64,000 bases of DNA, taken from Actinomycetes bacterium. Lineage in GTDB: Bacteria > Actinomycetota > Actinomycetes > JAHEKZ01. Shown one piece after another: positions 267 through 38,604 of this stretch; position 1 is the first letter of the stretch; each line of letters opens with the position of its first letter. The DNA is taken from assembly GCA_024644345.1 (NCBI GenBank), contig JAHELE010000003.1:1288-65287 (forward strand), written 5' to 3'. The translations under genes were made by a program, and so were the position numbers. The notes under the pieces are model-generated. The model did not search any database and was not told where the DNA came from. It saw nothing but the letters and a program-made list of their open reading frames with translations.

Positions 267-2855
267 GTGGGGATCATGCCGAACGACCCGCTCAACGGTC
301 TCACCGAAGCTGAGGCTGTCGAGCGTCGCGCCACATACGGAGACAATCGGCTCCCCCCGGCGCCATCGGTCCCTGCCTGGCGACGACTCGCTGCTGAGCT
401 GACTCACTTCTTCGCCCTTCTGCTCTGGGTCGCGGCACTCCTGGCCTTGATCTCGGGGCTGCCTGAACTCACCGCGGCGATCGCCCTGGTCGTGGTGATC
501 AATGCGCTCTTCGCCTTCGCTCAGGAGCGAAGGGCCGAGCATGCCGCTGCGGCGATGCAGGACATGGTCCCGCACACTGTCCGCGTACGACGAAGTGGCG
601 AGCTGCGCCAGTTACCCGCGGCCGATCTGGTGGTGGACGACGTCGCCTTGCTCGCCGCCGGGGATCGAGTGCCCGCAGACGGAGTCGTGGTCGAAGCACA
701 TTCACTAGAGCTCAACACGTCGATCATCACCGGCGAGAGTGTCCCCGTTGTCGCCGACGTCGGTGACGACCTGACCGGCGCAACCTTTGTGGTCCAAGGC
801 CAAGGTCTGATGCAAGTCACCGCCGTCGGAACTCATACCCGTCTCGCCAGCCTCGCCGACCTCACCCGGTCCGTTACTCGACCCGCCAGCCCTCTTGCGC
901 TCGAGATGCGGCGCGTCGTCTGGACCATCGCCACGATCGCCATTGCTACGGGAGTCGTCTTCCTCGTCGCTGCGCTCGTGGCCCGGTCCGACCTGCAGAA
1001 CGCCGTCACGTTCGCGATCGGGGTGACCGTTGCACTGGTACCTGAGGCATTGCTGCCAACAGTCACACTGTCACTTGCACTTGGTGCGCAGCGGATCGCT
1101 AAACGCCATGCGGTGGTCCGACATCTCGAGTCGGTAGAGACGCTGGGGTCTGTCACTTTCATCTGCACCGACAAGACCGGCACGCTCACCCGAAACGAGA
1201 TGCAGGTAGTTCAGGTGTGGACCCCACTCGGTTCGGTGCAGATCGAGGGAGACGGGTACGCGCCAACAGCAACGATCGTCGGATCCTTGGAAGCCCGCGA
1301 GGCAGCCGGGGAAGTCGCGCTCACGGCCCGCGTCTGCTCGAGCGGTGAGGCAGTGGAGAAGGACCAATCGTGGATCGCTCAAGGTGATCCAATGGAGGCC
1401 GCCATCGACGCCCTGGTGGCTCGGCTTGGACTGTCGAGGCCGTCCTCGCCGAGCCGGATCTTCCCGTTCGACCCACACCGACGCCGGATGTCCGCACTTA
1501 AGGATGGCGAGGTCCTAGTCAAGGGTGCGGCCGACACTGTCCTGCCGGTCTGCCGTGGTGAGGAGTCGACCCTCGCTGCCGTCGGCCAGACAGCTCACGC
1601 GATGGCTTCATCCGGGCTCCGGGTGCTCGCTGTGGCGTCTCGCCAGTGCGGGTCTGATGAACCGCGCGATGCTGTTGAGGCAGAGCGCCACCTCACCCTC
1701 CTCGGTCTTGTCGGGCTGTCCGATCCGGCCCGCCCGGACGCGAGCGTCGCGCTCCGTGCCTGTCGCGAGGCCGGCATCAAGGTCGCCATGATCACTGGCG
1801 ACCACCCCGCCACGGCATGGGCGGTCGCAGAGCAAGTAGGCCTCGCCATGGGGGAGCGCACAGTCGTCACGGGTGCTGAGCTGCCACCCGAGGGCGACCG
1901 CCTCGGCGAGCTACTGGACCACGACGGTGTGGTTGTCGCGCGGGTGACACCTGAACAGAAGCTCGCGATCACCGCTGCCCTCCAGTCGCGGGGTCTTGTC
2001 GTCGCCATGACGGGCGACGGTGTCAACGACGGTCCCGCTCTTCAGGAGGCCGACATCGGGATAGCCATGGGCGCCAGTGGCAGCGATGTGGCGCGCGAGG
2101 CGTCCGACCTGGTTCTGCTCGACGACGACTTCGCCACGATCGTGGCAACTGTTGAGCAGGGACGTGGCACGTTCCTCAACGTTCGTCGGTTCCTGACCTA
2201 TCACCTGTCGGACAATGTCGCTGAACTCTTCCCGCTCGTCCTGTGGGCTCTGTCTGGAGGGGCATTCCCACTCGCGCTGGGCGTCCTGCAGATTCTCGCC
2301 CTTGACCTCGCGACAGACACGCTTTCTGCGGTGGCCCTGGGTGGGGAACAACCCCACGGGCGCGTCATGCGCCGGCCGCCCGTCTCTGGTCGATTGCTGA
2401 ACCAGACCGTCGCACGTCGAGCATTCGGACTACTCGGCCCCACCGAGGCGCTCCTTGCCCTGGCGGCCTTCCTGGCCGTCCTCGTAGCGGGCGGCTGGAC
2501 CTGGTGGTCAGTCCCCGCACCCGCCCTTCTCGCCCAGGCATCTGGCGCATACTTCATCACGGTCGTGACCGCCCAGTCAGCCAATGCTTTCGCCTGTCGG
2601 AGCAGCACCCTGACACCCTGGGCGCTGGGGTGGACCACCAACCGGCTGCTTCTGATCTCGGTCGTCGTCGAGTTCGTCTTCGCCCTCGCTCTGCTCGTGC
2701 TGCCACCGATTGCCGACTTTCTGGGGCAGGCCTCACCCCCGCTATGGGGGTGGAGCATCGCCCTCGCTGCACCGGCGGTGCTCCTCCTGGTCGATGCAGT
2801 CGACAAGAAGCTACGCCTGGTGCGTCACCAGAAGCGCGCGTCATCCGCCGATTGA
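267..2855 (+). CDS. Cation-transporting P-type ATPase (P2-type, Ca2+/Mg2+-like)
   Basis: 862 aa; phosphorylation motif [14 protein letters not shown] actuator motif, hinge [12 protein letters not shown], about 10 predicted TM segments. Confidence 0.9.
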
Positions 2856-4182
2856 TCGTCAGGCGGAAGGGTGGCACTCTCCGGTTGCCCCGGGCCGCCC
2901 AGCCGACGGGCTAATCCGGCCCGCCTCGCCTGCTCCTGACCAATCGTCCTGGCACGGTCCGCCTGTTGATGCAAGGCAACGATCGACACCGGTCCAGGCG
3001 TCGAGTCCACGTGGACGGACGCGAGACCCAGCCGACGTTGCCACGGCCCCTGCACGACACGGACGCTCTGCGTACGGGCGTGCGGTACGACGTCCCATCT
3101 CGGTACCAACCACCCACGCCGTGTGACAAAGACCGAGGAAGTGGAGCCGACTCCGAGGTTCTTGTACTGAAGAGGTGCCCGCCACCGCGCCGCGACCGGG
3201 GCCGGATGCAGCTCGACCGCGAACGGGTCAACCCCAGGCAGCACGCGGTGCAGCACCGCACGTGCCACCGGAAGCGGGGCCACCGGAAGCACCACTGAGG
3301 GGCGCTCCTCACCCTCGCTGCCTCCCGCGGTTCCCGCCACGTTGACCACGACCCGTACCCATCCCCACGGTTTCCACATCAGCGGCCGCTCGATTCGCAC
3401 CGCCTGGACGCGACCCGGGGGGACGGTCTGCGATCGGTGCGAGGTCAGTCCGAACCGAAGTCGAAGGCCATCAGGTGACTGGGCAACCGTGAAGCCGAAG
3501 TACTTCAGGAACTGACCACCGACGACGGTAATGGGTGCGGCGAGCAACAAGATCCCCGTTATCCCGAGCTCCCAGACACCCGCCACACCTGCCACTGCGA
3601 CCACTGCTGGGATCAGGAGCACCAGGACAACGGTGCCCGGCTGCAAGATCAGAGACGCCAGCAGATGAGGTGGTGGCACCTGGACCAAGACTTGCTCTGG
3701 CGCCGTGGAAACTGCCGCGCCCTCCCTGCTACGCATTCCCGCGGCCCGAGCCAGAAGCTCAGCACGAAGCTGCTGCGCGTCATCGAGCGACAAGTAGCGC
3801 AGCGTCGTTCCTTCGGCCGAAGCCCCCGCGACATCGGGACGGAGTTCGGCAAGGCCGAACAACCGGGCCAACAGTGGCTGAGTGACGTCAACTGACTGCA
3901 GACGTGAAAGCTGGACGCGTCGCTCGTTCCGCACGAGCAAGCCAGAGGTGATGCGCAAGTCGCCATCGTCGTCGTAGAAGAACTCCAGCCGCGTCCAGGC
4001 AATGTACGAGTAGAGCCCGACAGCCAACAGGATCAGGGTAATCACAGCACTCGTTCCGAGCCCACCAAAGATGTCGGTGGCCGCGCCGTCGCCCACCACG
4101 AAAATCCCGATGATGAGGACAGGCGCCGCCCGCACTCCTGTGACCAGCGGCGTCACCGGATGGGTGCGACGCGGTGGTGTCA
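2825..4182 (-). CDS. YdbT-like membrane protein with repeated bacterial PH (bPH_2) domains
   Basis: ORF track gives 2825..4636, but the first ~150 aa are Arg/Pro-rich and overlap the upstream ydbS-like gene. The likely start is a GTG overlapping the ydbS stop (GTGA). Two N-terminal TM helices are followed by repeated 'RLEFFYDDDGDLRITSG..' PH-like modules. Confidence 0.6.
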
Positions 4183-4809
4183 CAGGCCAGCGCTCCGCTG
4201 CTCGCCGAGGGCAGCCAGCTGGTCGCGCAGACGTCCCGCGACGTCCGGCGGCAGGCCAGGGATGGTGGCGTCTGTGGTTGCAGCGGCCGTGTGCAGCTGA
4301 ACGGTGGCCAGCCCCAGGTAACGCTCGAGGGGGCCACGGCGGACATCGACCAGCTGCATCCGCCCGTACGGCACCAGCACCAGGCGTCGGAAGAGGATTC
4401 CCGACACGACGAGCAGGTCGTCGTCTCGCTCGGCGTACCCGATGGCCCGAACCTGCCGGCCGATCAGCCACCACATCCAGAGACCGGCCCCAAGACCCAC
4501 CATCAGAGCGATGAACCCCAGCTCGGGGTAGCCACCGACCACCAGGGTCACGACCAGCAGAGCCGTGACCAGTGCCGCAATGCTGATGGAGACGACGCGG
4601 CGACCCGTGGCCAGGCGGGGGTTGACCGGTGTCCACCCACGTTCGTCGGCCACAAAGGGATCGGTGCTCACGTCTAGCAACCTACCCCCCGCGCGTGGGT
4701 GCTCCGGCATGGAAGGATCACCCCGTGACCGAGGATCGGGTGGTGAGCACCGGGGACGGCGTCGTCGCCACCGACATGGTGCTGAACATCGGCCCACAGC
4801 ATCCAGCAA
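4180..4809 (-). CDS. YdbS-like membrane protein with single bacterial PH domain
   Basis: TM hairpin plus a PH-like C-terminus ('[28 protein letters not shown]'). The true start is probably the internal MPEHP.. Forms an operon with the ydbT-like gene. Confidence 0.55.
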
Positions 4810-5870
4810 CGCACGGTGTCCTTCGACTCCGACTTGTCCTCGACGGCGAACGCATCGTGTCGGCCGAACCCGTCATCGGGTACATGCACCGGGGCGCCGA
4901 GAAACTCTTCGAGGTGCGCGACTACCGGCAGATCATCATGCTGGCCAACCGCCATGACTGGTTGTCGGCGTTCTCCAATGAGCTGGGCGTCGTCCTCGCC
5001 GTTGAGCGGATGCTCGGGATGGAGGTACCGGAGCGGGCAACCTGGGCACGCACTCTGTTGGCGGAGCTGAACCGCTTGCTCAATCACCTCATGTTCCTCG
5101 GCTCCTACCCTCTCGAGGTGGGTGCGATCACGCCGGTCTTCTACGCGTTCCGAGAGCGCGAGGCCATCCAAGAGGTGATGGAAGAGATCTCGGGCGGCCG
5201 GATGCACTTCATGTTCAACCGGGTTGGTGGCCTGAAGGAAGACCTGCCCAACGGGTGGATCAATCGCGTCCGTACCGCCATGGCCGGCGTGCGCGACCGA
5301 CTACCACAGCTGGAGAACCTCGTGTTCGGCAACGAGATCTTCGCCGCGCGTACCCAGGGGGTCGGCGTTCTTTCAAAGGAACAAGTGCTGCAGTACGGCC
5401 TGTCCGGACCGATCGCGCGCGCGTCCGGCGTCGACATCGACCTGCGACGTGACGAGCCTTACTTGGCGTACGGGGAACTGCAGGACGTCCTGCAGGTGGT
5501 CACGCGCTCCGAGGGCGACTGCTACGCCCGCTTCGAGGTGCTCCGCGGACAGGTGCACGTGTCGATGGATCTAGTCGATACCTGCCTGGACCGCCTCGAG
5601 CAGCTCCCGCAGGGGCCGATCAACCAACGCCTTCCCAAAGTGCTCAAGGCCCCCGAGGGGTACACCTACGCTTGGACCGAAAACCCGCTCGGGTTGAACG
5701 GATACTTCCTTGTGTCGCACGGAGAGAAGACGCCGCACCGCATGAAGCTGCGCTCGGCGTCCTTCAACAACGTGCAGGTACTCAGCGAGATGCTTCCCGG
5801 CCAGCTTGTCGCCGACATGGTGGCCATCCTGGGGTCGATGTTCTTCGTCGTGGGCGACGTCGACAAGTAG
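4629..5870 (+). CDS. NADH-quinone oxidoreductase subunit D (NuoD/49-kDa, NiFe-hydrogenase large-subunit fold) paralog, stand-alone
   Basis: Conserved NuoD N-terminus '[22 protein letters not shown]', '[10 protein letters not shown]', and C-terminal '[26 protein letters not shown]'. The probable real start is the GTG near 4725 (VTEDRVV..). No other nuo genes are adjacent. Confidence 0.8.
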
Positions 5871-5886
5871 CCAACCCCACCCCCCG

Positions 5887-6065
5887 CCGAGTGCACACCT
5901 GGTTGACGCCTGAGCCCACCGAGTGCACACCTGGTTGACGCCTGAGCCCACCGAGTGCACAGGTGGATGACGCAACTCCGGGCCCGAAGTCGCCACTCGG
6001 CGTCCAGAACTGTCACTCAAGTGCGCACTCGGCGCAAGAAAGTGTCACTCAGGTGTGCACTCGGC
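5887..6065. repeat. Complex tandem + inverted repeat array (33-bp unit x2.5 plus ~30-bp unit x2, GTGCAC-centred)
   Basis: 'ccgagtgcacacctggttgacgcctgagcccac' repeats exactly twice and a diverged third copy follows. Then 'gtcactca[ag]gtg[ct]gcactcggcg' occurs x2. Right-hand units are reverse complements of left-hand 'cgccgagtgcacac'. Confidence 0.7.
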
Positions 6066-6078
6066 GAGTAGGCGAGGG

Positions 6079-6795
6079 TTAGTTGGCGGGGCGGAGCCGG
6101 GCGATCTCGGACGCCGTGAGGTCCAGAATCTGACGCGGCAGCTGTGCCTCGGCCCCCGTTGTCGACTCACGCTGCAGGCCAGGGGATGCCGGACGCGGTA
6201 CCGAGGAGGGCGCCGCCGGCAGGTCGGTCGAGAACGCTGCCCGCACCAGAGGCAGGTGCAGCGACGGGTAGACCGGATCGAATGCCGGGGAACGCGGCAG
6301 CAACATCTGTCGCATCAACGCTCGCTGATCGGCATCATCGCTGGCGATCCGGGCCGCCTCCTGCGAGAGGTGGACCGCTTCCTCACGCATCGTGCGCAGC
6401 TCGAGCAGAATCTCCAGGTGCTGTGCCTTGATCTCGGCCAGCTCTCGATGGGTGTCGGCAACTTCACGCCGCCGCTCTACCGACTCGAGCCACGCTGCCT
6501 GAGCCGCACGCGATGCAGCCCGCGTCGACGTCCACAGAGCGACCAGGGCGAGCACGACGATGCCCGTGACGCCGGCGCGCAGCGCCCACGTGTCGTCGAT
6601 CACCCACACCAGGGCAACGGATGCGATCGCGACCACAAGAGCGACAACCAGGAGCGGGATGGCGGAGCGGGGCGGCTCTGGCTGGGCGTGGCGTCCTCGT
6701 GACATGGATCCAGGGTACGCCGAACGGGTGATCCGCACCGGGTATTGCGGGTCTGCGCGTCCGGTCGGCTCAGGCGGCGGCCGACGAGGGTCCAC
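6079..6795 (-). CDS. Hypothetical membrane-anchored coiled-coil protein
   Basis: One TM segment (LLVVALVVAIASVALVWVI), a second hydrophobic stretch, then a charged heptad-like region (ESVERRREVADTHRELAEIKAQHLEILLELRTMREEA). No recognisable catalytic motif. The start is possibly the internal MSRGRH. Confidence 0.4.
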   Translation of the reverse strand: MDPRRPPPEPTGRADPQYPVRITRSAYPGSMSRGRHAQPEPPRSAIPLLVVALVVAIASVALVWVIDDTWALRAGVTGIVVLALVALWTSTRAASRAAQAAWLESVERRREVADTHRELAEIKAQHLEILLELRTMREEAVHLSQEAARIASDDADQRALMRQMLLPRSPAFDPVYPSLHLPLVRAAFSTDLPAAPSSVPRPASPGLQRESTTGAEAQLPRQILDLTASEIARLRPAN

Positions 6796-38528: not shown

Positions 38529-38604
38529 TGGAGCCGCCTATCGGAGTCGAACCGATGACCTACGCATTACGAGTGCGTCGCTCTACCAACTGAGCTAAGG
38601 CGGC
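38529..38604 (-). tRNA. tRNA-Thr (anticodon CGT), CCA encoded
   Basis: The reverse complement folds as a cloverleaf GCCGCCT/AGGCGGC acceptor, GCTC-AGTTGGTA-GAGC D-arm, ACGCA-CTCGTAA-TGCGT anticodon arm, ATCGG-TTCGACT-CCGAT T-arm, and CCA. Confidence 0.85.

Follow-up and report, generated by a model that had tools for sequence, protein, structure and literature searches.

A block of tandem and inverted repeats was analyzed in a 64-kb stretch of contig JAHELE010000003.1 (Actinomycetes bacterium, assembly GCA_024644345.1), hereafter called the window, in which positions are counted from the first letter. The repeats lie in a convergent intergenic region. On the left, an orphan nuoD-like gene encoding a Complex1_49kDa protein (4629–5870, + strand, or 4725–5870 from a later start) ends with a TAG stop codon at 5868–5870; on the right, a gene for a membrane/coiled-coil protein of 208 amino acids, which is the last gene of an ftsH–fol operon on the – strand, ends with a TAA stop codon at 6079–6081. 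Tandem Repeats Finder detected two arrays between these stop codons, and they are the top two tandem repeats of the window by a wide margin. The left array occupies 5883–5973 (period 32, 2.8 copies, 93% matches, score 154) and the right array 5994–6066 (period 32, 2.3 copies, score 102). A preliminary description of the region had given a unit of 33 bp; the actual period is 32 nt, and the longer figure arose because the first C of the next copy was counted in. Altogether, three rightward units span 5883–5978 and three leftward units span 5973–6068, with the innermost unit of either arm decayed. The region also contains an inverted-repeat arm pair at 5919–5971 and 6012–6064 (53 nt, 72% complementary) and a second arm pair at 5885–5925 and 5994–6034.

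The left array opens with a C-rich, G-poor leader, CCAACCCCACCC (5871–5882, + strand), which is followed by the CCCG prefix of the unit. The core begins 16 nt past the TAG stop and is read in the sense of the nuoD-like gene. The outermost unit, L1 (5883–5914, +; CCCG-CCGAGTGCACACCTGGTTGACGC-CTGAG), scored 43.5 of a maximum of 44.5 bits with the position weight matrix (PWM) described below. The next unit, L2 (5915–5946, +; 40.8 bits), is 97% identical to L1 and carries the identical spacer, indicating a recent local duplication. The innermost unit, L3 (5947–5978, +; 30.8 bits), reads CCGAGTGCACAGGTGGATGACGC and is decayed, with ACCTG changed to AGGTG, in agreement with the tandem copies and diverged third copy described previously. 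A small apical palindrome, GCAACTCCGGGCCC / GGGCCCGAAGTCGC (5972–5993, no strand assigned), appears in both the inverted-repeat listing and the folding, at the tip of a long hairpin. On the – strand, R3 (5973–6004) is heavily decayed (below 4 bits) and retains only CGCCGAGTG at 5994–6002; R2 (6005–6036; 28.7 bits) consists of CGCCGAGTGCGCACTTGAGTGACAG and TTCTGGA; and R1, the outermost right unit (6037–6068; 42.7 bits), consists of CTCG-CCGAGTGCACACCTGAGTGACAC and TTTCTTG and belongs to the AG subtype. The leader of the right array, CCCTCGCCTA (6069–6078, –), separates R1 from the stop codon, and the right core begins 14 nt past the TAA in the sense of the 208-aa gene. The right-hand copies had been described as reverse complements of the left-hand core. 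Two clear inverted units, plus the third decayed one, are indeed present, but the right arm is no inverted copy of the left: the arms are independent arrays, of the CCTGGTTGAC subtype on the left and of the CCTGAGTGAC subtype on the right.

Within the window, the repeat unit is confined to this single locus. When the PWM was run over the rest of the window (approximately 128 kb, both strands), one match reached at least 6 bits, compared with 28–44 bits for five of the units described above. The distribution beyond the window was evaluated by running the pattern CCGAGTGCRCACYTGRKTGAC, a 21-nt core, on collections of species-representative genomes, metagenome contigs, viral contigs, plasmids, and phages. 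In the species-representative genomes, the pattern matched 34 places, 21 of them in one metagenome-assembled genome (MAG), 'Actinomycetes bacterium Ww60' (JAHEKZ01). Other matches fell in JBJMHG01 (3), DASUFV01 (3), JBBQAL01 'Ca. Nanopelagicales' (2), and CAWHIJ01, CAVQHW01, and JANLWJ01 (1 each). The metagenome scan added 31 contigs, and the viral, plasmid, and phage collections gave zero matches with the pattern. Two of the 34 genome matches, in a Nocardioides gene interior and in a tRNA-like stretch of a Krumholzibacteriia genome, look like chance. Nearly all matches thus belong to one clade of uncultured, high-G+C actinomycetes, whose MAGs are labeled 'Actinomycetes bacterium' or 'Ca. Nanopelagicales', and the interspersion proposed for the unit was borne out. 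The number of arrays differs approximately 20-fold among related genomes.

A single local duplication event, or a palindrome that arose by chance in this intergenic region alone, would agree with the single occurrence within the 64-kb window; however, 65 further loci share the core, period, and architecture, and the folding z-scores and Tandem Repeats Finder scores are far beyond chance. This explanation is refuted by the genome and metagenome matches, and its probability is negligible. The window locus is therefore securely a member of a dispersed repeat family that behaves like a variable-number tandem repeat (VNTR). A literature search with the core sequence returned unrelated primer sequences only, and the family is apparently undescribed so far.

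A 28-mer PWM with a peak of 44.5 bits defined 80 arrays at 65 loci (designated by L numbers); ascertainment of a locus needed at least one perfect core. Alignment of 80 units gave a core of 25 nt, C(C/T)CG-CCGAGTGCACACCTG-NN-TGAC(G/A)C, most positions of which carry 1.3–2 bits. The core is followed by a spacer of approximately 7 nt, which is weakly conserved and rather T-rich, with recurrent types including TTTCGGA and CCAAGCC. Arrays carry one to three scored units, and a decayed fourth copy is seen in some. Genome-specific spacer subfamilies were considered as a sign of within-genome copying, and the signal was weak (0.379 vs. 0.339, permutation p ~0.1). Single low-scoring matches without the CCCG prefix occur in L029 (5526–5553), L030 (226–253), L043 (1139–1166), and L068 (633–660). 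Their contexts are unrelated (the Nocardioides gene interior, a tRNA-like 3′ end in a Krumholzibacteriia contig, an AT-rich contig), and they are most likely chance matches rather than family members.

The architecture of the unit bears on the multi-site operator proposed in the preliminary description, in which a transcription factor would recognize GAGTGCAC-type sites and define a regulon. Two direct half-sites, GAGTGCAC and GAGTGAC, do lie within the highly conserved core at a distance of 12 nt, a spacing of 32 bp would keep successive sites on the same helix face, and a handful of arrays (L014, L015, L009-, L002-) precede gene starts. Nevertheless, most arrays abut stop codons rather than promoters, many of them between convergent genes where there is no promoter, and the neighboring genes are functionally unrelated. 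Moreover, copy number is unstable, the inner units decay, and abundance varies about 20-fold among relatives. An operator array fits these observations poorly and is very improbable. The GTGCAC hexamer, the only palindrome inside the core, is present in 19 copies in the window, where 20.9 would be expected, and a restriction–modification link via this site was rejected.

The placement of the arrays relative to genes was then assessed from long open reading frames (ORFs) with a high G+C content at third codon positions (GC3). In 56 of the 80 arrays, a co-oriented ORF of this kind ends 2–44 nt before the core, with both mode and median at 12 nt. Several of the remaining arrays lie at contig ends or follow a stop codon that is visible although the ORF filter missed it. 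Solo arrays in clear co-directional intergenic regions are all in the sense of the upstream gene (L001, L016/L044, L020, L021, L004-, L009-, and orthologs); a few others, L014/L070 and L015, are found in divergent regions. The leader between stop codon and core contains 54% C and 22% G, compared with 37% and 33% at 146 control gene ends, and CC immediately follows the stop codon in 58% of cases near arrays and in 26% of controls. A similar C-rich leader is found at arrays that have no preceding stop codon (L008-, L014, L070), indicating that the leader belongs to the element. Across whole arrays, base content is 35% C and 30% G; a Rho-type C-over-G bias along the arrays was thus excluded, the C-richness being limited to the leader. 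In addition, TAA stops are more frequent near arrays (10/43, 23%) than at control gene ends of the same loci (8/146, 5.5%). The element as the source of the stop codon was excluded, as orthologs share the stop position and the protein C-terminus whether or not they carry an array.

The conserved TGAC block (unit positions 13–19), and CTGAGTGAC in the AG subtype, place TGA on the sense strand alone. With a 32-nt period, which is not divisible by 3, successive tandem units put TGA into different frames, and arrays of two or three units cover all three; we speculate that these sense-strand TGAs would halt ribosomes running past the gene end in a stop-poor, high-G+C genome.

This placement raises the alternative of a structure-independent gene-end signal, in which the non-palindromic 25-nt motif and its C-rich leader, approximately 12 nt past the stop codon and in sense, would be read by a dedicated factor. 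Such a factor would end or insulate transcription units by acting on DNA as a polar roadblock or on nascent RNA (termination, Rho-loading, or stability), and the first unit would be under purifying selection while extra units would be drifting duplicates. The modal 12-nt spacing, the invariably sense orientation of solo arrays in co-directional regions, their unstructured RNA, and the C-rich, G-poor leader are all consistent with this alternative. So are the position of arrays between the end of a gene and plausible promoters farther downstream (for example, TAGTCT in L009 and L059), the 32-bp period of about three helical turns, and the fact that, among orthologs, the first unit is kept much better than neutral proxies whereas leader and spacer have diverged. 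On the other hand, the information content of approximately 44 bits exceeds by far what a binding site needs, which argues for copying rather than convergent selection. Furthermore, only a small share of genes (perhaps about 1%) has an array, and the functions of these genes are unrelated; numbers differ approximately 20-fold among related genomes; sister lineages show arrays decayed or gone and nothing visible in their place; some arrays lie in divergent regions (L014/L070, L015); and C and G are nearly balanced across whole arrays (0.35 vs. 0.30). We consider a dedicated gene-end signal unlikely.

The preliminary description had predicted long-range stems at the locus, and folding of the 210-nt region supports them on both strands: the + strand folds at –106.1 kcal/mol (z = –5.5) and the – strand at –132.9 kcal/mol (z = –9.0), and 0 of 200 shuffles reached the folding energy of the region. 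Compact head-to-head pairs at other loci likewise form long hairpins (z of –8.4 to –9.5). In these doublet hairpins of 150–190 nt, core pairs with core in register and the spacers form internal loops. In contrast, solo arrays fold like shuffled sequences (z = +0.3, +0.5, –0.4, +1.1, +1.3, –0.5, and +0.6), with one exception (–3.4). A consensus scan called no canonical promoter or terminator at 5871–6078, and a search of the region against Rfam with E-values up to 10 gave only two sub-threshold matches of chance quality. A canonical intrinsic terminator was thus excluded, as no short G+C-rich hairpin with a U-tract was called at the locus. A clustered regularly interspaced short palindromic repeat (CRISPR) array, which has repeats of 23–47 nt and unique spacers of similar length, was also excluded, as the spacers here are only approximately 7 nt and often identical in adjacent units. 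The earlier judgment that the locus is neither a CRISPR array nor a simple terminator therefore holds.

All 15 array pairs that lie within 2 kb of each other are head-to-head. Once orthologs are merged, these represent approximately nine independent loci, to which L033, where the second arm is partly masked, would add one. At the FtsW locus (L008/L002/L058), the pair lies in a co-directional intergenic region with its right arm toward the start of the next gene, indicating that pairs are not merely two convergent gene-end arrays. The gap between the arms varies among orthologs, being 21, 158, and 303 nt at the FtsW locus and 21 vs. 1064 nt at L032/L004, and large gaps hold differing small accessory genes (DUF1905, AbiEi/DUF559-like, AAA_33 kinase, EEP-family). 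Between-arm genes were located at L002 7371–7643, L004 1023–1955, L009 470–1024 (also in L059, L056, and L060), and L013 ~2390–3772. As the arms abut in the orthologous loci L008 and L032, the center of the doublet looks like a hot spot for gene insertion. A conserved, –10-like TAGTCT precedes the AAA_33 kinase start codon (ATG) by approximately 7 nt (L009 ~1030–1040, L059 ~320–335). It lies just inside the last repeat unit, which suggests a leaderless transcript starting at the array edge.

The regular orientation of the pairs also makes a non-autonomous transposon of the foldback type or of the miniature inverted-repeat transposable element (MITE) type worth weighing. The pair would be the mobile unit, the tandem repeats in its arms would be transposase-binding sites, and the arms would serve as its terminal inverted repeats, comparable to the ends of IS21, Mu, and Tn7 or to eukaryotic Foldback elements; solo arrays would be half-deleted relics and any terminator effect incidental. 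The outer ends point outward in 15 of 15 nearby pairs, the FtsW doublet sits in a co-directional region with one arm facing a gene start, and the accessory genes found between the arms vary from locus to locus. In addition, the C-rich leader moves along with the array, the outermost unit is the best preserved, as would fit a terminal binding or cleavage site, and abundance varies widely among related genomes. However, approximately 60% of the arrays are solo, with no inverted partner, even a decayed one, at 4 bits, and in co-directional regions the solo array is always the sense arm. The arms are unlike in subtype and their spacers non-complementary, in contrast to matched transposon ends. No direct repeats (target-site duplications) flanked any of the doublets inspected, and none emerged by comparison with L035 and L036, which lack the repeat. 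No transposase was seen in approximately 0.4 Mb of loci, nor any transposase-like ORF in the unexplained gaps near arrays. Finally, doublets stay at orthologous sites across species, without the presence/absence pattern of recent insertion. A mobile foldback element is therefore improbable, and with neither a target-site duplication nor a transposase found the repeat cannot be called a MITE.

Comparison of related arrays revealed a clear polarity. The outermost, gene-proximal unit outscores the innermost in 51 arrays and underscores it in 12 (binomial p ~7e-7), and adjacent outer units often have identical spacers, indicating recent local duplication. L056 and L060, which are 99% identical in coding sequence, differ by exactly one 32-nt unit, and unit numbers also differ in other relatives (2 vs. 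1 in L010/L055; 3 vs. 2 in L018/L066). Arrays thus gain and lose whole 32-nt units via local slippage or unequal exchange, and the VNTR-like behavior suspected earlier is real; the doublet orthologous to the window locus, in Ww60 (L012), is likewise shorter by approximately 48 nt. Between orthologous pairs from different species with a third-codon identity of 0.55–0.63, which is close to saturation, 19–24 of the 25 core positions of the first unit are kept (76–96%), and the differences fall mostly at three known variable positions. In the same pairs, 0–4 of 7 spacer positions are kept and leader identity is 0.2–0.5. Conservation of the core far above neutral expectation requires either purifying selection on the first unit or ongoing homogenization or re-copying.

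Comparison of the window with related contigs further clarified the history of the doublet. The nearest database relatives of the nuoD-like protein are 86–94% identical. Only 10 nt lie between the stop codons in L035 and L036 (91% identical), and the repeat is absent. In L037–L039, 24 nt (GGCCACCGAGCGTCAAATCTCAGC) separate the stops, and in L040, 38 nt; both stretches resemble decayed relics. L041 carries a small, unrelated palindrome. In L012 from Ww60, where the flanking DNA is 83% identical, the same doublet is present, partly masked. In L028 from JBBQAL, an array past the 208-aa gene is followed by an insert of approximately 540 nt and then by a decayed mini-doublet at the nuoD stop; the insert (3093–3633) has no counterpart in the window. 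The presence of the doublet in the window and Ww60, with relics or absence elsewhere, indicates that it is old at this site, kept in some lineages, and eroding or lost in others. Runs of N occur in the stored records of L012 (7820–7919), L033 (~5173–5270), and L013 (~4400–4560), and in L012 and L033 they lie inside the doublets.

Taken together, the interpretation we favor, and regard as probable though with considerable room for doubt, is that the units of this lineage-specific interspersed repeat family are copied or homogenized between loci and retained at gene ends, with the paired arms forming a 3′ hairpin at this site. The units would be copied between loci, or homogenized, by a sequence-specific machinery, and the arrays would resize locally by slippage. 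The element may be tolerated or retained at the ends of transcription units, and, with the arrays paired, each of the two convergent transcripts would carry a very stable hairpin at its 3′ end. By analogy with enterobacterial REP/BIME clusters (repetitive extragenic palindromic sequences and bacterial interspersed mosaic elements), this hairpin would most likely terminate transcription from both sides despite the lack of a U-tract, and/or stop 3′-exonucleases.

Several observations weigh against this interpretation. A role in termination or stabilization is argued from likeness to other systems, and no T-run or U-tract follows either arm. The locus pieces yielded neither a copying enzyme nor a target-site duplication or autonomous element. 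As approximately 60% of the arrays are solo and unstructured, the hairpin cannot be the family-wide mode of action; moreover, the strong sense bias and the conservation of the first unit could point to a host function independent of structure. In addition, the related genomes were read as pieces of approximately 8 kb around the matches, the gene calls at the loci come from a crude ORF and GC3 filter, and several loci are mutual orthologs, so that the counts and statistics are not fully independent.

REP, BIME, mycobacterial interspersed repetitive unit (MIRU), and Correia elements are short interspersed repeats that are common in bacteria. The preliminary description had likened the locus to REP or MIRU elements. 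The dispersed, VNTR-like behavior agrees with this comparison, but the unit itself does not: it is no palindrome, has no GTAG head, is not a multiple of 3 in length, and is anchored at stop codons. Like REPs, BIMEs, and REPINs, the family consists of dispersed extragenic repeats that are enriched at gene 3′ ends and between convergent genes, occur as singlets plus hairpin-forming inverted doublets, and persist at orthologous sites. Some Escherichia coli REPs lie within approximately 15 nt of stop codons, and REPs stabilize upstream mRNA. However, the REP/BIME unit is an imperfect palindrome of approximately 20–40 nt with its own stem-loop, whereas the repeat here is not self-complementary. The head of a REP is a conserved GT(A/G)G, compared with C(C/T)CG-CCGAG in the position frequencies here, and BIMEs alternate in orientation, whereas these units are direct tandem copies with a fixed 32-nt period. 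REP systems are, furthermore, proteobacterial and associated with the RAYT transposase (Y1 HUH), whereas the host here is an actinomycete; no RAYT gene was seen in the ~8-kb pieces around the matches. A non-palindromic unit without a GTAG head is therefore not a REP.

The actinobacterial host, the dispersed loci with few direct copies, the strain-variable copy number, and the orientation in the sense of neighboring genes are shared with MIRU/VNTR loci. MIRUs measure 40–100 bp and are reported to insert at start codons, with an internal ORF that overlaps the stop and start codons of the flanking operon genes and is translationally coupled to the gene (PMC12548453). In contrast, the period here is 32 nt, a length not divisible by 3. 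The arrays hang on stop codons, often convergent ones, and pair head-to-head rather than bridging a stop to a start, and they come from uncultured Actinomycetes/Nanopelagicales MAGs rather than Mycobacterium; by description, they are set apart from MIRUs.

MITE and Foldback elements share with the head-to-head pairs the outward-facing inverted arms of tandem repeats of approximately 31–32 bp and a variable or absent center that sometimes contains a gene, but differ in that here no target-site duplication or related transposase was found at the loci, the arm subtypes differ, and the majority of arrays stand alone, oriented with the upstream gene. The U-tract-less ('I-shaped') terminators proposed for high-G+C actinobacteria resemble the locus in having a long G+C-rich hairpin past convergent stops that would serve both directions; the stem here, however, is 150–190 nt, is built of repeats with internal loops, and solo loci have the units without a hairpin. 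Termination by U-tract-less hairpins is itself disputed.

The combination of an unstructured unit, a strict 32-nt direct tandem, stop-anchored sense arrays, outer-to-inner decay, and head-to-head pairing is unusual. Because the core at orthologous sites is retained much better than expected under neutrality, the family provides a usable test case for distinguishing selection from concerted copying. The arrays are also VNTR-like strain-typing markers for this lineage in metagenomes, and likely spots of assembly breaks and apparent long palindromes.

Regarding the neighboring genes, the leftward operon that ends at the repeat comprises a phosphoribosyltransferase gene, ftsH, folE, folP, folB, folK, a DUF3180 gene, and the 208-aa gene last. 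With the Met of MSRGRH as the start, the last gene spans 6079–6705 (208 aa), and the longest ORF reaches 6795. Its product has no Pfam match and is predicted from its sequence to have a long helical region and two hydrophobic helices that probably span the membrane. Elsewhere in the window, a tRNA gene at 38532–38604 (– strand) is the sole Rfam match at the gathering threshold in the 64 kb. The nuoD-like gene is not part of any nuo operon; it neighbors bPH_2 (PF03703) genes and is convergent with the fol operon, an arrangement that is kept across all related contigs examined (L035–L041), and homologs of approximately 80% identity are called NuoD in Streptomyces, Embleya, and Catenulispora.

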